A DNA stretch of 64,000 nt from a virus, in IMG/VR virus record IMGVR_UViG_3300033485_000002, positions 64,001 through 128,000 of that record, one strand, 5' to 3'. Positions 6,194-36,155 of the stretch are shown here, piece after piece (position 1 is the first letter of the stretch; every line of letters begins with the position of its first letter). The translations under genes and the position numbers were made by a program. The notes under the pieces are model-generated. The model was not told where the DNA came from. It saw only the letters and a list, made by a program, of their open reading frames with translations, and did no database searches.

Positions 6194-6197
6194 GCTA

Positions 6198-6267
6198 TTG
6201 TCATGGCTGGGTGCGGTGTGGCGAGGCCAGGTAGGGTATGGCATGGTGTGGCTCGGCAAGGCAGGGG
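6198..6267 (+). ncRNA. Orphan gapped-guide (VIPR-like) unit: TTGTC-AT followed by 12 perfect GGY-NN pentamers
   Basis: ggc tg/ggt gc/ggt gt/ggc ga/ggc ca/ggt ag/ggt at/ggc at/ggt gt/ggc tc/ggc aa/ggc ag; same TGTC handle as the array at 32.75-33.4 kb. Confidence 0.75.
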
Positions 6268-25787: not shown

Positions 25788-28108
25788 GAGATTCTTGATG
25801 ATGTGGTGGAAGAAGCTCAAAGTCCGCTTTGAGTGCTGGCGTTGGGGCCACGATTGGTGGTACAGCCGGGACTACGATCGAACGTATCGTAACATCGGCA
25901 TGTTCTACATAAATCGTACGTGTCACACCTGTGGTCGGCGTGAGGTGGGGATGCCCAAGCTGGGCGAGACCGCCTATCAGGATGTATATGGAGACCCTGA
26001 CCGCAGCAAGTTCTTCTGGGTGAAGGAGTCAATAAAGTGAGCGATATGGTGAATGCGTTCTTTGCCAGCCAAGTAGGCTCACTCATCGTGGGCATACTGC
26101 TCGGTATTGCGACCTATCGGTTCATCAAGCTGTGGCGGCGGTGGAGGGTACGGGATGACTGAGTGGGTGCTGAAAGAATGTCCAGGTTGTGGCCGTAAAC
26201 AACCCCCTTTTCTCTATGACGAGGGGGTTGAGTTGTGTATGGGGTGCGCGGATAAGGGCACCACCTATACCGACAAGATGCGGAAGCCAAAATTGGCAAA
26301 AAAGAAGTTGACACTCGAAAGCAAGGACACTATCATTGATTCCGTGAAGAAGCGGAAGTACACCAAGCGAACCAAAGTGCTTGAGGTGGGGGAGCTTGAC
26401 CAGACTGCATTGACTCGTTCGCGGATGATGAAGGAGCTGGACGATGAGTGATGCTGGATGGGTGGTACAGATAATGACCAGCATTAACGGCGGCAATGGG
26501 CAGTGGGTGACTATCTGGAATACTGCAAACTGCCACCGGACTGGTGCGATTGCCGAATGGGACAGGTTGTATGGGGCTTATGACGGTGAATGGGAGTATT
26601 GCCGCAAGAGAAAGCTCTTGCGCTGCGTGCGGTGTGAGGTGAAGCCATGAGTGAGCTTACAGAGCGGCTTATCTCCTGGGCGCAGAACGAGGAGATGATC
26701 GACCAGTACTACACGGACCACGGTAAGGATTGTATGGATGCGGTTGATCAGCTTGAGCGGATGCAAGCGCTGCTCCATGAGGTCGCGTGTTGCGGCGTTG
26801 AGTTTGAAGACGAGCGAGTCAGGTACGTGACCATCCAGATTGACAAAGAAACGCTCGACGCCATCCGTGCTCTGGACGGTGTTGATGTTTCAAACTTGTA
26901 ACATCTACCAGGATTCGGAGATCAATAGCCATGTTTCACGGGTCAACGGATAAGCAGACTACGTGGTGTGGTGAGAGCGTCCACTATGTCAGTGGGTGGC
27001 AGGAAGACGCGAACTACGTGGAGTGCATCGAGTGTCTGAGGGCGAAACTTCATGCCCAGCAGCAAGTGGTGGACGAGGTGTTGCGGGTGATCAGAGAGGA
27101 AGTCTACGGTTTGCAGGATCTGCGGAACGCGCTGCGTGAGGGCGGGTTTCTGGAGGTGAAGCATGAGTAGTTTTAAAACTGCTTGGGTTAAGGCTTGTAA
27201 GGGTTATGAGCCACCGGATCTAGAGGCTGAGATCGCCCGCCTCACCGTAGAGAACAAGCGCCTGCTAGCGGTGGTAGACGTAGCGGTGGAGGCTGTTGAG
27301 AACTGGAAGTACGAAGATGACATGGCTGCTTGGGAGAGCATGAAGAAACTGCATGACATCCTCCGCACCATTGGACGTGGGGTGTATCGTGAGTGACCGG
27401 AGCCAATGATGGACACCTTTCAAATCGTTGTGCTGTTTATCTTCCTCCTCGGCTTTGCTTTTGTGGGTGGCATATGGGTAGAGCGGCACACCACGGAGTT
27501 CAATATTTATCGTAGTTTATCGCGTCCTGATAGGCCGTGTCCGACGTGTGGGAGGAAAAATACTCGCCATGAGTGACTGGACTCGCGATGAGATCGTGTC
27601 GGTGTTGAAGGTGGGCCATGAGGCCGAGATCAAAGAGGCCGACGAGTGGCGACCATTGGCGCAGCACGTATTGGACCTGTTGAAGCTGCACGACAGGAAG
27701 TACGAGAAGCTGGTGGCAGTGGCCCACAATGCCAGCCAGAATGTAGGTATCTGGGCGGATAAGCTGGACCGTGCTCTCAAGGAGCTGGAAGGCAAAGACC
27801 CAAGGGTGTGCCCGAAGTGTCAAAGCCAGCCACCACCGTATACGCTGCCGGATCTGTGGCCGGTGAGAGTCATCCCGGTCACCTGTACGGGTTGTGGAAA
27901 GACGTGGGTGTGGGAGGGTCAACGATGGGAGGGGAACTATGACGCAGAATAACGACTATGTGGTGCAGCTCCAGAAGCTGCTCGCTGCCATCGACTGGTT
28001 GCTCCAGTCGCCGACCAACAAGGACGGGGCTATCCCTGGGGATAGCAAGGCATTTAGAAATCTCATCGAAGTGACTGATAAGGTCACGAAGTTCCTGGTG
28101 GGTAAGTC

Positions 28109-28591
28109 ATGAGTAAGGCGTTCTTTGAGGGCTTGGTAGGGAGCACGATGCTGGCGCTTCAGAAGCAGAATGACGCCTTGAAAGTGGAACTTGCCGCAGT
28201 GGTCAAGGAGCGGGATTTAGTCAAGTCGCAGTATGCGCGGGCGATGGAGCTGGGCCAGCAGTCGATGCGGGTGATGGACGCAGCCTGCCGCACCATTGAC
28301 GCCCATAAGAAGGCCCTGGGAGCGATTGCGGAGATCTACCCCATCAGGGCCACCCCTAGCTTGACCAGCGTGTTGGAGGGGCTGCTGGACCAGGAAGAAT
28401 GCGAACTGTGCGAGGGCAAGGGCAGGGTGCCAGCGTCGATGCACGCGGAGTCCATCATGTCGCCCACCTATGACGGTAGGAACTGCGAGTGTCCACTGTG
28501 TAAGGGTAGCGGCATCAAGTACGACGCAGATGGCTATGTGGCGGCTGACTATCTCTGTAAGATGTGCAAGGGCACGGGGAGGGTCAAGTGA
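28109..28591 (+). CDS. Protein with DnaJ-type CxxCxGxG zinc-finger repeats
   Basis: CELCEGKG, CPLCKGSG, CKMCKGTG. Confidence 0.65.
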   Translation: MSKAFFEGLVGSTMLALQKQNDALKVELAAVVKERDLVKSQYARAMELGQQSMRVMDAACRTIDAHKKALGAIAEIYPIRATPSLTSVLEGLLDQEECELCEGKGRVPASMHAESIMSPTYDGRNCECPLCKGSGIKYDADGYVAADYLCKMCKGTGRVK

Positions 28592-30469
28592 TCCATCAGA
28601 TTAGCTTGGAAGTGGGAGATAAGGTCAAGCTTAACCCGGACATCACAAAGCGCATGAGGTGCATCCAGGACCGAACGTTCAAGCTAGTGATCCCTACTGA
28701 TGTGAAGGAGTGGACGGTCAAGTCGTTGGGGGAAACCATGGTGTCGCTGACTGCCCCAGGGTATGGGGAAAGACCCTATGGCAGCGGGTGTATCACGATG
28801 AACAAGATCGACCTGATCATGGCGATGGAGGACTAATGACCGCAAAAGCTGACGTGCTGGAGTGGCTGACTGAGTGTGCTGAGCAGTATGAGGATGGATT
28901 GTCCAGGGAGGAGCGCAAGAACAAGCGCAAGGTGGCGGCGATGAAAGATAACGTATACCGCGCTGCCATCAAGGAGATCAAGGGGTTGAGGAGGGAGATC
29001 GAGCGCACCGACCTCACCCTGTCCGCGCTGATCACTAAGAACCTCAAGATCCTGGGCATGCTCCGCCTGAATGCTAAGAGCATGGATAAGGTAGACCAGG
29101 AGCTGGAGCACCTGAAGAAGTGGAGCAAGGTGGGCAACTGTTTGATCAGGGTGAGGCAGTCAGATCCTCCGATCCTGGTCAAGCACGAGAACGGAATTAT
29201 TACTGCAAACCTTGATGGCTACGCTATTATCCCAAGGGAGGAGATGTTGTATGGCAGCCCCGATGAACCTGCTGTTTGAGCATCAGGCAAAGGATAAGAT
29301 CTGCCCCATCATCTACATCGGCCAAACCCCAGGGGGATACTGTGTTGGGTCAAGCTGCATGATGTGGCGGTGGGCGGGTGAGCGGGCCGAGGGTGACGCA
29401 GACGTGAAGCACCCGGTGGGCTACTGTGGTCTGTCTGAACTGTCCGAGAGGATTGAATGTCATGAGTAGGGAGAACTTGCTCGAACGGTTGGATAAGAGC
29501 CGGATAGAGGTGGACGACTACTGGAGCTACCTATACGACACGATAGGGGAAGTTCAGGAAGACATCACCACTTTGCGGGAACTGGTGTATGATCTGGTGA
29601 TGCAAACCTGTGCGAGCACCACGGTGCCGGATAAGTTGGACAGCATGGCAATCAGCGCTTATGCGGATGCGATGCGTTACCTGGATACTATCGGGAAGAT
29701 CGTGATCACCGAGGAGCGGGGACGGAGAGTTATTGCCCATCTGCCGGGGGATGACAATGGGGATGCCAATCAAGTCGAAGGGCCACACGACGGAGCATGA
29801 TCTCGGGTGCCTGTGGTGTGTCGTCATATTCTTAGTGCTGGTTGCTGTAGGTGCAGTCATCTACTCGATCATGGGGGTAATGTGAGCGAGTTCGTGCAGG
29901 CGCTGTGGGGTGGCTTCGTGGTCGGGGCGATGATGGGGATGTGCATCGGCATGGTGATGGGCTACAAGCTGGGAAGGGACGACCAATGAGTAAGACGCGG
30001 TTGTGCGATCTATGCGCCTGTCCTATCAAGGACACCAGGAAGAGGATTCGAGTGGTGCCTAAGTTCATCTGGCATCTCCCAACGATAAACGGGGATTTTG
30101 AGGGTAAGCTGGACGTGTGCTATGACTGTTGGTCCTGGTTCAAGCGGTTCATCCAAGAGGGCAAGAAGATCCAGTTTAACCCGGTGGAAGGAGCATTCGA
30201 TGGATCATAAGTCGGTTATGATCGAAAAGGTGGATAATGGCTACGTTATCAGGCTTAATGTGGACGGGCCGATATCGAGTGATTCGGTCACGTATGTTGA
30301 GAAGTTGTGGCTTCAAGCGGCGTGTACGGTGACGGAGTTCTTTGACGAGCAGCTTGCCATCAGCCCGGTAGCGCCACCTATTGTCTCTACCTGGAAGGGT
30401 GAGCCGATCACTGGTCCTCCGGTGTATTCGATTGAGCGGGATGACACGGATCGTTGTTGAGGGGGAGAG

Positions 30470-31330: not shown

Positions 31331-31406
31331 GGGCCGTTAGCTCAGTTGGTAGAGCATTTGTCTTACACGCAAGTGGTCGCTGGTTCAAGTCCAGCACGGC
31401 CCACCA
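31331..31406 (+). tRNA. tRNA-Val(TAC)
   Basis: GGGCCGT/ACGGCCC acceptor stem, CT-TAC-AC loop, GTTCAAGTC T-arm, encoded CCA. Confidence 0.95.
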
Positions 31407-31427: not shown

Positions 31428-31456
31428 TTGACAACATCGACCACTTCACCTATCTT
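31428..31456 (+). promoter_or_regulatory. Sigma70-like promoter of the Cas7-like/array operon
   Basis: TTGACA-17 nt-TATCTT, then AGGAGG RBS. Confidence 0.75.
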
Positions 31457-31476: not shown

Positions 31477-32259
31477 ATGGTACGTAAGAAGAAAGAAGCG
31501 GTCGCCGAAAACGAAGAGATCCAGGTGTTTAAGGTCGAAAGGGGGGAAGTGTCGTACTGTGTTTTGGGTCTTACTCCACTGATCACGGAAGCGATGAGCG
31601 AGAAGGTGAAGCGGGAGCTGTTGCTGCCCAAGGGCCGTAAGACCGCTGCCGACAAGGCGGGCACGGCCAAGCACGATGTGCTGGAGGAGTACCGCAACAG
31701 CACCTATCAGGCGAAGGACGATACGTCTCCGACTCGGATCGTGATTCCGTCTACTGCCTTCAAGGGTGCGCTCAGGGACGTGGCGACCGATATCCCCGGT
31801 GCCGCAAAGGCGCAGATCGGTCGGTTGGCGTTTGTTAAGGGCTACCATATCCCCGTGTTCGGGGTGCCGCAGCTCATCATGTCGGTGGTTCGTAACTCGG
31901 ACCAGAACCATACTCCTGACATTAGGACTCGGGCGATCCTGCCTCGGTGGGCCTGCTATCTCACGATCGAGTACACGATCCCGCTGTTGAATGATGTTGT
32001 CGTGACCAACCTGCTGGCCGCTGCTGGCCTGATGCGGGGTATTGGTGGTTGGCGTCCGCAGAAGGGGGCTGGTGACTTCGGGCAGTTCACGCTCGTTGAC
32101 CAGGACAACCCCGAGTTCTTGGACATCGTTGCCACTGGTGGGCGTGAGCCGCAGGATCTGGCGCTGGCCGATCCTGAGTGTTTCGATAGCGAGACGGTGA
32201 ACATGCTGTCGTGGTTCATGGCGGAAACCAAGCGGCGTGGTCTCAAGGTTGTGAGCTAG
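31477..32259 (+). CDS. Cas7/RAMP-like (Vipr-like) RNA-guided effector protein
   Basis: RAMP hallmarks: G.TPL in the first strand, IPSTAFKGALRD, C-terminal G-rich loop AG..RGIGGWRPQKG.G.FGQF; directly upstream of the pentamer array. Confidence 0.8.
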   Translation: MVRKKKEAVAENEEIQVFKVERGEVSYCVLGLTPLITEAMSEKVKRELLLPKGRKTAADKAGTAKHDVLEEYRNSTYQAKDDTSPTRIVIPSTAFKGALRDVATDIPGAAKAQIGRLAFVKGYHIPVFGVPQLIMSVVRNSDQNHTPDIRTRAILPRWACYLTIEYTIPLLNDVVVTNLLAAAGLMRGIGGWRPQKGAGDFGQFTLVDQDNPEFLDIVATGGREPQDLALADPECFDSETVNMLSWFMAETKRRGLKVVS

Positions 32260-32267
32260 GAGGAATA

Positions 32268-32747
32268 ATGGAACACGAGCGGACGAAGATCATTCGGGAA
32301 GAGCTGATCCGCCTTGAGAACTCGCTGGGGACGTTGACCCCGGACAAGGTGGTCGAAGCAGCTACTCCTGTGAAGAGTCCAATCCACCCTTGCTTCGATT
32401 GGGACAATACCTCGGCAGGGCACAAGTACCGATTGGAGCAGGCGCGTGGTCTTATCCAGTCGGTGAAGTACCGGGTTACGACCGAGAAGAAGGTGTTTAC
32501 GGTGGCTCGGTATGTGCGTGACCCGAGGGTGGACCCTCAAACGCAGGGGTATGTCTCGGTGCCGAAGCTGAAGGAAGATCCTGCTGCGGCCCTGAAGGCG
32601 GTACAGTGGGAGTTTTCCAGAGTGCAGCAGGCACTGGAGCGTTTGGAGATCTTGGCCACGGTGCTGGAAGCCAAGTCGGTGGTTACGGCAGCCCGTAAGC
32701 ACATGAAGCGGGTGCAGGCTAAGGTGGAAAAGTCTTTTGCGATCTAG
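32268..32747 (+). CDS. Accessory protein of the Cas7-like locus (159 aa)
   Basis: GGAGG RBS; LTP..VV.AA....SPIHPCFDWD...A..YRLEQAR.LI motif; lies between effector and array. Confidence 0.75.
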   Translation: MEHERTKIIREELIRLENSLGTLTPDKVVEAATPVKSPIHPCFDWDNTSAGHKYRLEQARGLIQSVKYRVTTEKKVFTVARYVRDPRVDPQTQGYVSVPKLKEDPAAALKAVQWEFSRVQQALERLEILATVLEAKSVVTAARKHMKRVQAKVEKSFAI

Positions 32748-32752
32748 CCGAC

Positions 32753-33404
32753 ATTGTCACGGTTTAGCTGTCAAGGTACGATCGGGATTGTTCGGGTTTG
32801 TCAAGGAAAGTCAAGATCTGGCGCGGTCGGGTGAGGCTGTCGTGGTTCGGTCAGATCCGTTCAGGGATGTTAGGGAAAGATATGGTGTGTTCTGGTGGGG
32901 GAAGATTCGGATGGGCAAGGTGAGGCTGTCCAGGTAAGGTTCGGTGGGATGGGGCGTGTTACGGCGACTTAGGGTTAGTCATGGGCAGGTTCGGCTGTCA
33001 CGGTATGGCACGTTAGTTTCGGGTTAGTCAAGGACGGGAACGGTGCGATCAGGTCTGATCCGGTCTGACTGTCACGGTACGTGTCGTAGGGTAGGAAAAG
33101 GCAAGGCTCAGCATGTTAGGGTTCGGTGAGGCTAGGCTGTCACGGTGTCGTGAGGATGGGACCGGCAGGGCCGGGTTCGTTGCTGGCGTGGCATATTTTG
33201 GCGGGGCTTGGCTGTCATGGTGATTTTTGCGTTCAGGCGTGATTGGGCCTGACAGGATTCGATTAGGCAGGGCCGGGTAAGGTTTGGCTGTCACGGTGGG
33301 ATATGGACGGATCCGGAAGGGAGAGATGCGTTCTGGCGGGGTCTGGTGGGGCTGGGTGAGACCGGGTGGGACGAGATTTGGTAAGATCCGGTCAGGTCTG
33401 ACTG
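32753..33404 (+). ncRNA. Gapped-guide (VIPR-like) array: 8 units of (G/A)(G/A)CTGTC-NN handle plus G-led pentamers
   Basis: Handles at 32766, 32835, 32924, 32993, 33067, 33135, 33210 and 33286 (spacings 69, 89, 69, 74, 68, 75, 76, i.e. 9+5n with small indels); 5-nt periodic G between handles. Confidence 0.85.
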
Positions 33405-33411
33405 GTATGTT

Positions 33412-33487
33412 GGGGGAGTAGCCCAACGGTAGAGGCGGAGGACTTAAAATCCTTTCAGTGTGGGTTCGAATCCCACCTTCCCCACCA
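33412..33487 (+). tRNA. tRNA-Leu(TAA), short variable arm
   Basis: GGGGGAG/CTTCCCC acceptor stem, GAGGA-CT-TAA-AA-TCCTT, GTTCGAATC, CCA. Confidence 0.9.
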
Positions 33488-33497
33488 ATGTGCTAAG

Positions 33498-33568
33498 GGG
33501 GGTATCACTCAGTGGCCGAGTAGCGGGCTTTTAACCCGCCTACCAGGGTTCGATTCCCTGTGCCCCCA
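33498..33568 (+). tRNA. tRNA-Lys(TTT)
   Basis: GGGGGTA/TGCCCCC acceptor stem, GCGGG-CT-TTT-AA-CCCGC, GTTCGATTC; no encoded CCA. Confidence 0.85.
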
Positions 33569-33708
33569 CTTTTGGAGCTAATATGGACGAGCTTAATCAA
33601 AATGTTGAACGGTTGCTGTGGATCTGGAGTCTGCTCTGCCTCAGCGTAACTGTAGTGGGTTTGTTTATTTGGTGGATAGGGAGATATCGTGATAAGTAGG
33701 AGATAGGA

Positions 33709-33912
33709 ATGGCTTCGACTACGGCACTGGATAAGCGACTCACGGAGCTGGAGAACCTCATGAAGGAGGTTATCCGTGCCTCTGAGACAGCGACTCGTGT
33801 TTATGCTGAGAATCAAGAGCCGATCGAGCGCCGCTTCCATACTTTGGAAGCGAGAGTCAGTGCCGAGATCAACGGGGTCATTGAGCGACTGAATAAGTTA
33901 GAGGGCCGTTGA
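33709..33912 (+). CDS. Small coiled-coil protein
   Basis: AGGAG RBS; coupled to the next gene. Confidence 0.55.
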   Translation: MASTTALDKRLTELENLMKEVIRASETATRVYAENQEPIERRFHTLEARVSAEINGVIERLNKLEGR

Positions 33913-36155
33913 TGGCTACATACTACATGCGGGCTGATGGTAGCGCGACGAAAGCTAATGCTACTGGGCCGTCTTCTGATCCCACCAAGTGCATGAACAA
34001 GACCACGCATGACGCGGCCACGTTTTCCCCTGATGACTTCATCATATGCTCCGGGCTGGGTGGGATCTATCGAGGCTACTTCAGACCACCGTCAAGCGGG
34101 ACGGATGGGCATCCCATCACGTACATCGGAAGCGATTCTCCCCATTTTACGGCGAAAGAGTTAGCGACTGGGTGGACGCTCCATGCCGGGAATGTCTGGA
34201 AAGTAGCGTGGACACGGGGCGGTGATGTTAATGCCCAACACCTTTTTATCGACGGGGTAGATCAGGGATTAGGTCAGTCTGCGCTGGTGAATGTTGATGC
34301 CGAGGGTGAGTGGTTTCTTGATGACCCCGGCAACATGTTGTACTTATATGACAGCGGTGGAGATCCTGACGGGCACGTTGCTCCAGGGATTGAGATTAAC
34401 TCCGTTGAGCGCATCATAGAAGCCGGTAAGTCCTATACCATCTTCGATGGTTTGCACTTATCATGGGCGTCCTACGCACAGATCAGGTCGGATAACGCAG
34501 GAAGTCATGTCACTATCCGGAACTGTACTTGTGAGTACGGTAACCGTGGAATCAGTGCAACGACTACTGCGGGTACTTATACTGACTGGGAAATCTATGA
34601 TAATACGCTGCGTTACTTCTGGAACTCTGGGATTGAGTTTCTTCACGGAGGACGAGAGTCGCGCATCTACAGGAATCACATCCATGACGTTGACCATGAC
34701 TCGTTCGCCATTGGTTCAACTTATACGAACGGGATCAAGCTGTGGGATGACGGTGCCCTCACTGGATCTGTCGAAATCTTTGAAAATCTGATTTATGACA
34801 TTGGCCCAGGTGGTGCAGCGTCTGGCCCTGGTCAAGGATCTGGTATCTGGTTTGACCGTATCCAACCTGAAGCTGGTGACGAGTGTGTGGCGTACCACAA
34901 CTTCCTCTACAACTGCTCGGGGACCGGGGTCTTCATCGAGATCTCAAGGCATTGCATTGCCTACTCCAACGTGATGTACAACTGCGGTTATCACTCTGGA
35001 GGAACCGATGAGTTCAGTCCTTCCGGCATGAGAATCGATACTAGGACCGGGTACAATAGTGAATACAATTATGTGTATAACAACACCGTGTATGGGGGCC
35101 GTTGTGGGATGGTTGTGGCCGGTTACTATGATCATACTGCCGTCATTAGCTATAACGAGGTGAAGAACAACATCTTCATCGGCTGGACGGAGCACGGTCT
35201 TATCGCTCGTAACGGTGGGGATAACACTACGCTTCACGGGACCGGGGTTGGCAACGTCTACGAGCACAATTGCCTGGGGCCGGAATCCAATGCGCTTGTG
35301 CAGTGGAACTACCATCATGTTGGAACCCATGATGGGTGGGAAGCGATTGCTGACACTGCACATCATGTCGTTTTGCAGGATTACTGGCTGGATAATACAT
35401 CTCAGCCAGTTGACGGTAGTGGTGGCTATTGGTGGGGCATTGAAGTCCCGCTGAGTGGTACAGGTACAGTCAATGTTAAGCGGATATTTGCAAGGTTGTG
35501 TCGCGTTGGTACTCCTTCGAACAGCACCGCGAGGATGAGGATCTATGACAACAATGCCGGTGCGCCAGGGACCAGCATTGCGGAGACGACGCTTAATATT
35601 TCTGCCGTCACAACCGACAGCGTTGATGGTGATTGGTATGAGTTCGTCTTCTCTAGTTCGGTTACCCTGACCAAAGGTAGTACTTACTACTTTGTGATGG
35701 TTGGAGACTGGACTCACGATAACAACAACTGCGTTAAGATGTTTGGCAGAACCAGTGGTTACACCGGGGTTCATCATTCTTGGCGCTATAGTGGAACCTG
35801 GACAGAGACGACTGCGGCCACATTTGCTTTTATTGCTTTAGACGATACTTATGTCCCTGGGTGGATGCATAACGTCGAAGGAGATCCGCTTCTTGCAGAT
35901 GTTGAGGCCCACCAGTTCTGGCTCACAGAAACCTCTCCCTGCCTTGAAGCTGGAGTGGACCTTGGAGCGGATTACCGGTCTGGACTTCATCCATCGAGCG
36001 TTTGGCCAGATGGTGTAGTGACGGCCAATCAGAGTGGGGATTGGGATATGGGGGCATATATCTTTCCCTCTTCCGGGGGGCATTCAGCACTCCCACTCGG
36101 TCAAGCTTTTGACCAGGATGTCTTTTTCCCATCGTCAATAACTTGGATCGTATGA
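33912..36155 (+). CDS. Right-handed beta-helix (pectin-lyase-like) protein with C-terminal beta-sandwich; probable virion/tailspike-like protein
   Basis: Repeated I.N N.I/V.. turns (YNNTVYG, KNNIF, YRNHIHD); SPCLEAG...DMGAY motif. Confidence 0.7.
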   Translation: MATYYMRADGSATKANATGPSSDPTKCMNKTTHDAATFSPDDFIICSGLGGIYRGYFRPPSSGTDGHPITYIGSDSPHFTAKELATGWTLHAGNVWKVAWTRGGDVNAQHLFIDGVDQGLGQSALVNVDAEGEWFLDDPGNMLYLYDSGGDPDGHVAPGIEINSVERIIEAGKSYTIFDGLHLSWASYAQIRSDNAGSHVTIRNCTCEYGNRGISATTTAGTYTDWEIYDNTLRYFWNSGIEFLHGGRESRIYRNHIHDVDHDSFAIGSTYTNGIKLWDDGALTGSVEIFENLIYDIGPGGAASGPGQGSGIWFDRIQPEAGDECVAYHNFLYNCSGTGVFIEISRHCIAYSNVMYNCGYHSGGTDEFSPSGMRIDTRTGYNSEYNYVYNNTVYGGRCGMVVAGYYDHTAVISYNEVKNNIFIGWTEHGLIARNGGDNTTLHGTGVGNVYEHNCLGPESNALVQWNYHHVGTHDGWEAIADTAHHVVLQDYWLDNTSQPVDGSGGYWWGIEVPLSGTGTVNVKRIFARLCRVGTPSNSTARMRIYDNNAGAPGTSIAETTLNISAVTTDSVDGDWYEFVFSSSVTLTKGSTYYFVMVGDWTHDNNNCVKMFGRTSGYTGVHHSWRYSGTWTETTAATFAFIALDDTYVPGWMHNVEGDPLLADVEAHQFWLTETSPCLEAGVDLGADYRSGLHPSSVWPDGVVTANQSGDWDMGAYIFPSSGGHSALPLGQAFDQDVFFPSSITWIV

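Follow-up and report, generated by a model that had tools for sequence, protein, structure and literature searches.

A VIPR locus of an uncultured 168-kb phage with a guide probably directed against tyrosine integrases of rival elements

Gene content of the locus

The window is a 64,000-nucleotide stretch of a 168-kb phage record (IMG/VR record IMGVR_UViG_3300033485_000002, positions 64,001 to 128,000), and all coordinates refer to it. It contains an operon of two genes followed by a non-coding tract of about 640 nt:

31428-31456, plus strand: promoter-like site TTGACA-17-TATCTT, found by a consensus scan (10 of 12 matches), a candidate by consensus match only
31477-32259, plus strand: vipr, encoding a 260-aa Cas7-like RAMP protein (AF2 model, Foldseek, HHalign)
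32268-32747, plus strand: vap-like putative accessory gene, 159 aa, named for its position after vipr and a weak similarity to SUSP1 vap1
32768-33405, plus strand: vrRNA array of eight guides with 13-22 pentamer units each, a 4-nt CTGT standing before each guide

The proteins encoded by vipr and the vap-like gene had no match in Pfam or among the PDB sequences (phmmer). The AF2 model of Vipr reached a pLDDT of 81.5 and was compared with the PDB by Foldseek. Its best matches were all Cas7, Csm3, type VII Cas7 or Cas7-11 chains with E-values of about 1e-5; 79 matches were obtained at E<=0.001, those among the matches listed being Cas7-type chains. A profile of the Vipr family aligned in HHalign with the Vipr of Escherichia phage SUSP1 with a probability of 92.9% and an E-value of 3.6e-7 across the RNA-binding G-loop. 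The loop motif is GVGDWRP in SUSP1 and in the family consensus (G[VI]GDWRP in the family) and GIGGWRP in the Vipr studied here. In the latter (residues 188-194, 32037-32057) a glycine occupies the position equivalent to D177 of SUSP1 Vipr, which was reported to be essential (VIPR bioRxiv preprints). Three relatives (P0089, P0052 and P0120) read GVGDGRP, with a glycine at the equivalent of W178; in the array of one of them (L121) G-A replaces G-G in 53% of the units, and protein and scaffold may co-vary.

Homologues of Vipr were numerous in the protein collection (1272 at E<=0.001), those listed being mostly metagenomic. A tblastn search with Vipr retrieved only hypothetical proteins of about 28% identity from Mycobacterium and Gordonia phages, a search of IMG/VR for related loci with the single Vipr protein yielded no relatives, and blastn of 8 kb against the INPHARED phages matched only tRNAs. 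Six Vipr relatives shared the arrangement of vipr, a downstream gene of about 160 aa and a pentamer array. The similarity of the vap-like protein to SUSP1 vap1 was weak (BLASTP E 6e-4, 23% identity over 88 aa).

The operon and its array are bracketed by tRNA genes (31331-31406, 33412-33487 and 33498-33569). A tRNA-Leu starts 7 nt past the last array unit, so that the array transcript could receive its 3' end by tRNA processing. Immediately beyond the array and its flanking tRNAs, a 748-aa protein (33909-36155, plus strand) carries a right-handed beta-helix domain (PF13229, E 5.7e-10) and is probably a tail spike or depolymerase. An ORF of 160 aa further upstream (28109-28591, plus strand) resembles the DnaJ CXXCXGXG zinc finger and anti-TRAP, in both cases weakly and below the cut-off.

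The vrRNA array

VIPR (Viral Interference Programmable Repeat) is a CRISPR-like, RNA-guided DNA silencer that was first described in 2026, in three preprints (bioRxiv 10.64898/2026.04.26.720920, 10.64898/2026.04.26.720927 and 10.64898/2026.10.15.759431). The protein of such a system, Vipr, is a minimal RAMP with an RRM core, a G-loop and a thumb; it is usually accompanied by a single accessory gene, vap, and by vrRNAs that consist of 9-16 YNNGG repeats. Pairing between the NN dinucleotides and double-stranded DNA leaves out one target base in three, namely that at the codon wobble position, and both strands contain targets (VIPR bioRxiv preprints). In the published structures each repeat is covered by one protomer, with GGY buried and the skipped base of the target turned out into a pocket of the protein. 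In SUSP1, vrRNA4 silences the excision recombinase of F5 satellites with a guide in codon register and a footprint of six units, or 18 bp (VIPR bioRxiv preprints).

The tract downstream of the vap-like gene follows this grammar. GG dinucleotides between 32700 and 33420 are spaced with peaks at 5, 10, 15 and further multiples (43, 50 and 39 pairs, as against 5-10 off-phase). Of the 117 regular units, 93% have G at position 4, 67% have G at position 5 and 86% start with a pyrimidine, positions 2 and 3 being near-uniform. The second scaffold G is thus relaxed, with A in 18% and T in 15% of the units, and G is the commonest base of the array. The CTGT units lie at 32768, 32837, 32926, 32995, 33069, 33137, 33212 and 33288. 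In the Vipr clade the 4-nt delimiters of the guides are always CTGT in the present array and cAgg, cTgg or cGgg elsewhere; they shift the register by -1 and come without a structured tail. The arrays of the six relatives (L121, L122, L245-L248) likewise contain a 4-nt unit every 10-18 pentamers. The present array has irregularities of other kinds as well: unit 5 contains the -1 unit tACg, and unit 7 carries an insertion of +2. Repetition is limited to a linker of 10-12 nt. Inverted repeats were not found in 32600-33500, nor was there an Rfam match, and the structured 3' tail or pseudoknot of type II vrRNAs was not seen.

The array was letter-identical in two further metagenome assemblies from different samples (L163 and L164), which shows that its irregular six-base unit, described below, is real and no assembly error. 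A 183-nt contig identical to 33186-33368 came from one run labelled metatranscriptomic but probably DNA, and the contig shows neither ends nor expression; the data sets listed as holding the array sequence included no RNA library.

Units 4 and 8 (33051-33071 and 33384-33404) end in a shared GGTCTGACTG motif (repeat family D4), which may mark the ends of two four-guide blocks. A solo tract of the same type lies apart from the operon:

6197-6265, plus strand: solo vrRNA-like tract between two genes about 100 nt apart, composed of TTGTCATGG and then 12 more YNNGG units

It is situated 26 kb upstream of vipr and has no vipr adjoining it. Solo vrRNAs in phages and satellites have been described (bioRxiv 10.64898/2026.10.15.759431).

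Sequence and decoding of unit 6

The sixth guide and its two irregular positions are the following:

33137-33211, plus strand: unit 6, CTGT followed by 14 units; antisense guide to the integrase codons N-P-K-I-x-S-E-R-L-G-H-S-T-V
33181-33186, plus strand: irregular 6-nt unit tGCTgg, in which CT reads the AG of a Ser codon and the extra G has no assigned partner
33188-33189, plus strand: guide dinucleotide GU, alone among the units in never being Watson-Crick paired with natural sites, facing GTn, GCn or ATn

Its letters are CTGT, then cACgg tGTcg tGAgg aTGgg aCCgg cAGgg cCGgg tTCgt tGCTgg cGTgg cATat tTTgg cGGgg cTTgg. The units are of the YNNGG type, with a degenerate scaffold (cg, gt and at) in three of them. 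When the sequence was re-read, the list of dinucleotides given in the original prediction proved exact, including the single 6-nt unit. The reverse complement, with one base skipped per codon, is AAn CCn AAn ATn ACn AGn GAn CGn CTn GGn CAn TCn ACn GT, and the antisense dinucleotides decode to [KN]P[KN][IM]TS[DE]RLG[HQ]STV. The skip-one-base reading that the prediction had used for this decoding is the published VIPR rule.

Integrase targets of unit 6

A set of scans was conducted to locate natural sequences that unit 6 could read. The pattern used for 185,579 species genomes comprised 11 units with 22 specified bases, the 'Thr' unit being left free. By chance, about 0.07 matches were expected (2 x 596e9 / 4^22, with equal base frequencies); 40 exact matches were found. 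All 40 were in frame in tyrosine integrases reading (N/H)PKI(V/A/I)SERLGHST(V/I/A). The best match comprised 26 of the 28 read bases (93%), above the 80% of read bases that serves as target-match threshold in the preprint. Sites with NPKIVSERLGHSTV reached this score in genomes of Nonomuraea, Microtetraspora, Planomonospora, Acidimicrobiia, Actinomycetota and Blastocatellia, and sites with HPKIASERLGHSTV did so in a Rhizobium genome and an alphaproteobacterial MAG. The predicted decoding to an integrase box was therefore correct, natural PF00589 integrases with NPKIVSERLGHSTV matching 26 of 28 read bases. In IMG/VR the 7-codon core SERLGHS occurred at more than 120 places, the best of which were integrases with HPKIASERLGHSTI at 25/28.

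The proteins of three target loci (L201, L168 and L154) matched PF00589 with E-values of 1.9e-28 to 4.3e-21. The site read by unit 6 lies inside the PF00589 catalytic domain (e.g. residues 342-355 of 384), just before the tyrosine of the LDxYSH motif (LDTYSH).

More stringent scans were negative. The full 13-unit pattern of unit 6 had no exact match in IMG/VR or the JGI metagenomes, and a 9-unit pattern including the Thr unit had none in IMG/VR. Likewise, 11-unit and 12-unit exact patterns for units 7 and 8 returned nothing from IMG/VR, and no exact target for unit 6, 7 or 8 was obtained from IMG/VR, the JGI metagenomes or the species genomes as scanned. The 168-kb phage record itself contained no integrase over the Pfam cut-off, and no self-target of at least 80% was found in the phage's own genome.

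Units 6, 7 and 8 on one integrase subfamily

The two guides that follow unit 6 were read in the same way:

33212-33287, plus strand: unit 7, antisense guide to [KN]FRLYDL[SR]HTCA (HxxR box), with a 2-nt insertion (tt) after the second unit
33288-33401, plus strand: unit 8, of which the first 13 units (8a) form a sense-strand guide to TGMRP[SR][DE]ALGLG[CW] (box I, catalytic Arg)

Unit 7 was decoded after re-parsing with the 2-nt insertion; across this insertion the second codon positions agree at about 68 of 70 sites, and the first positions mostly mismatch. Against 1.35 Mb of integrase-bearing loci unit 7 matched 22/24 bases and unit 8a 21/26, scores reached by 0 and 1 of 100 unit-order shuffles, respectively; in 10-unit windows unit 7 attained 20/20 and unit 8a 19/20. 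Taken singly, unit 7 scored 23/24 at best (L200) and unit 8a 23/26. For units 1-5, the solo guide and unit 8 at its full length of 22 units, the scores were no better than those of shuffles, either in these loci or in the phage's own genome. An assignment of unit 3 to the catalytic-Tyr box was unsupported in the same 1.35 Mb.

The second half of unit 8 (33347-33401, the last ~9 units) did not continue the match to integrase box I, and its target was not found; one of its 10-unit windows scored 18/20, the best shuffle reaching 17. Two guides with no CTGT separating them may make up unit 8.

When the two boxes were sought together in metagenomes, as YDLRHT and PK.(V/I).SERLGH with 34 free bases between them, 75 loci were obtained. 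Their unit 7 site begins precisely 60 nt upstream of that for unit 6, and a TGMRPxE box lies 360-462 nt upstream. The best joint score of units 6, 7 and 8a was 66/78 (L201, L168 and L170). The suggestion that units 6, 7 and 8 all address one integrase subfamily is borne out by these 75 loci, the fixed 60-nt spacing and the joint score. A natural integrase matching the three guides together, by which this was to be checked, was found in so far as the same subfamily is matched at up to 66/78; an exact match to all three was not. One sense guide (unit 8) and two antisense guides on one gene fit a targeting of DNA rather than of mRNA. In 8 of the 14 target loci examined a tRNA gene shares the locus with the integrase, the nearest one within about 300 nt where this was compared (L205, L189, L214 and L168), as expected for integrative elements. 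The guides of two relatives (L121 and L122) had no matches to the integrase set.

The likeness to integrases might in principle have arisen by chance, with the tract serving as replication iterons or as a protein-binding repeat. Such a reading can draw on the general risk of reading degenerate peptides from two of three bases, and on this only. It has next to no probability in view of the 40 exact in-frame matches where about 0.07 were expected, the two further guides that match two other boxes of the same protein at fixed spacing, the adjoining Cas7-like gene and the co-occurrence of its family with such arrays; the 40 matches and the joint spacing of units 6-8 already refute it.

The six-base unit

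Unit 6 departs from the pentamer grammar at tGCTgg. Units of six bases are rare, with about 3 in 400 across six arrays (<1%, this clade). In the best matches, the target is colinear and in frame on both sides of this unit, the eight units on its 5' side (ERLGHSTV) matching 16/16 bases and the six units on its 3' side (NPKIxS) 10/12. The guide thus remains colinear and in frame across tGCTgg, and the extra base costs no target base. This colinearity makes a looped-out 1-nt indel of the ordinary kind the most likely explanation of the extra base.

The original prediction had proposed instead that the normally skipped base was retained, GCT being the complement of a full Ser codon AGC, and that this could hint at how guides are written from target DNA. 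The extra G would pair with the C of AGC and could wobble-pair with the T of AGT, and the guide does hold the codon register across the 6-nt unit. Among 132 unique natural sites the Ser codon was AGC in 90 (68%) and AGT in 42 (32%), the search pattern itself requiring AG. The codon check put forward for this idea thus gave AGC at most natural sites and AGT at a third of them, and since the exact target was not found the decisive codon gave no answer. A G is likely to occur by chance in an array where this base is the most frequent; together with the AGT sites this leaves the retained base unsupported. Counting the extra base as part of the scaffold (TC-GTTG-CT) is just as possible, and the skipped base is flipped into a pocket in the published structure, where it is unavailable for pairing. 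Nor is the scaffold pyrimidine related to the wobble bases of the targets: a pyrimidine would call for purines among them, yet C makes up 31-38%. A kept wobble base also leaves the -1 and +2 irregularities of the same array unexplained, and the low frequency of six-base units in the six arrays speaks against it as well. A scar of guides copied from target DNA is consequently highly implausible, and the six-base unit is no real evidence on how guides are made. A related reading in which the scaffold pyrimidine stands for the third codon base was rejected, as it would give unit 7 a stop and Glu/Gln in place of the required Tyr, Asp and His.

Alternatively, unit 6 could be a decaying or dead guide, whose +1 indel breaks the register of the Vipr filament and which survives only owing to a young, clonal phage population. 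The failure to find an exact target in four scans of the collections is compatible with decay, as are the two non-Watson-Crick positions in one unit, the three degenerate scaffolds and the rare 6-nt unit; the identity among the assemblies indicates low divergence, not selection. On the other hand, none of the 14 units has lost its colinearity or frame with natural integrases (26/28), and the neighbouring guides address the same gene family. Frequent internal degeneracy of vrRNAs has been reported (VIPR bioRxiv preprint), and the SUSP1 tracts as parsed also hold degenerate units. We therefore consider a dead guide unlikely.

The 6-nt unit might also split unit 6 into a guide of eight units (ERLGHSTV) and one of six (NPKIxS), each with its own filament, side by side on the target. 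A register shift, in the form of the 4-nt unit, does mark guide boundaries in this clade, and the six-unit, 18-bp footprint of SUSP1 vrRNA4 shows that a guide of the shorter length has been reported. However, the boundary signal in this array is always CTGT with a shift of -1, not +1, and the two halves would abut on the target with no spare base, which makes a split guide decidedly improbable.

G·U pairing at unit 6

The dinucleotide GU at 33188-33189 would read ACn; the natural codons GTn, GCn and ATn are all compatible with G·U wobble, and Ile/Val at codon 4 of the unit 6 site is G·U-compatible as well. When wobble pairs are counted, NPKVVSERLGHSSV in L236 scores 27/28 and L168 reaches 72/78 over the three guides. 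The G·U-compatible share of the non-Watson-Crick cells was 54% for unit 6, compared with 16% for unit 7 and 25% for unit 8a, an enrichment carried by three positions of unit 6 only. The VIPR preprints do not discuss G·U pairs and bulges. As a hypothesis drawn from these three positions, VIPR may accept G·U pairs at unit 6.

A stronger version would have both irregular units functional, the 6-nt unit reading a full Ser AGY codon and GU reading a Val/Ala/Ile/Thr codon ([AG][CT]n) by wobble, so that unit 6 would be a deliberately degenerate probe of the subfamily and the extra base perhaps a trace of target-DNA templating. We regard this combination as very unlikely.

Class assignment and proposed mechanism

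The locus 31477-33405 is a VIPR system. A RAMP protein is encoded beside the RNA locus, the units are tandem YNNGG with hypervariable NN, and guides match by the skip rule on the codon register at 80% or more (unit 6 26/28, unit 7 23/24, unit 8a 23/26); the RAMP fold, the array grammar, the homology to SUSP1 Vipr and the in-frame target matches all agree in this. Since the array lacks a structured 3' tail, the locus was not filed as type II. A CRISPR array, recognised by direct repeats of 25-40 nt, unique spacers and cas1/cas2, was considered and rejected, as only a 10-12-nt linker is repeated beside the two-gene operon.

Taken together, unit 6 is very probably one vrRNA of a phage-encoded VIPR system that would silence the tyrosine integrase of rival elements, the extra base being most likely a looped-out indel. 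By analogy with the systems of the preprints, RNP assembly, DNA binding and silencing would proceed at this locus in the following manner. The array would be transcribed and, as in SUSP1, the Cas7-like Vipr would polymerise on every guide into a filament. Its protomers would each span five bases, of which the G-G-pyrimidine scaffold would be buried and the two variable ones exposed. The dinucleotides would pair with double-stranded DNA at two of every three bases, which puts the skipped base on the codon wobble position. Unit 6 would pair with the integrase coding strand over 14 codons, covering the helix with the conserved His just before the catalytic Tyr. The HxxR box (RLYDLRHTCA) would be the site of unit 7, and the Arg motif of box I (TGMRPxEALGLxW), read on the other strand, that of unit 8. 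Rival integrative elements, be they prophages, satellites or islands, would probably have their integrase silenced at the level of transcription, and a silenced integrase would hold such elements in the chromosome during infection.

The targeting of an integrase by a VIPR guide is supported, yet it is known biology, as recombinase targeting was already presented in the preprints. The points of interest are the tail-less architecture of the array and the three guides that tile the catalytic boxes of one enzyme. The logic of SUSP1, a codon-aligned guide against the core of a rival's recombinase, recurs in an unrelated uncultured phage of 168 kb. It is carried further there, with three guides spread over the Arg, HxxR and His boxes of a single integrase subfamily and over both strands. 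This supports a general role of VIPR in preventing competitors from excising or integrating. The locus also offers a natural test case of whether a Vipr filament tolerates a 6-nt unit without losing the target register, and another for the acceptance of G·U pairs; both points would matter for off-target rules in any use of VIPR as a tool. About the origin of guides the locus says nothing reliable, and the retained base of the original prediction did not hold as a hint on that question.

Comparison with known systems

With the Class 1 CRISPR systems (types I, III and VII) the locus shares the Cas7 backbone fold, which provided the best structural matches, and a thumb that periodically interrupts the guide-target duplex. 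Unlike these systems, it has no repeat-spacer units and no cas1/cas2 or other cas genes. In VIPR the guide has a period of 5 nt and the target one of 3 nt, compared with 6 and 6 in Class 1 CRISPR, and VIPR guides are genome-encoded with no acquisition machinery known.

Within VIPR, the legend of fig. S18 in the discovery preprint describes 'staggered' vrRNA arrays in which adjacent vrRNAs overlap by 1 nt. In the present array the pentamer tract is continuous, the end of one guide is the start of the next, and the -1 shift at each junction fits a 1-nt overlap. From that legend we infer that the two share the same architecture.

The closest comparison is with the type II VIPR system of SUSP1 (vipr, vap1 and vrRNA1-4), whose locus we located in NC_028808 as two minus-strand genes (28031-29061) flanked by YNNGG tracts. 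Both systems are phage-borne and combine a RAMP protein having a G-loop of the GVGDWRP type with a small downstream gene, in the present phage a putative accessory gene. [quoted passage not shown] The Vipr described here is 260 aa in length compared with 195 aa in SUSP1, and similarity is detectable only over about 50 residues. Its guides are separated only by the 4-nt CTGT and have no long 3' tail or pseudoknot, whereas type II as characterised in SUSP1 and P. fulva is tailed, with a pseudoknot in the SUSP1 clade. The phage is known from freshwater and wetland metagenomes as an uncultured 168-kb record and is unrelated to SUSP1; JGI 3300009167, 3300009091, 3300009111 and 3300027877 are among the samples that contain it. 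The target of both systems is the catalytic core of a recombinase of rival elements, which SUSP1 addresses with one footprint of six units and the present phage with three guides of 12-14 matched units that tile three catalytic boxes.
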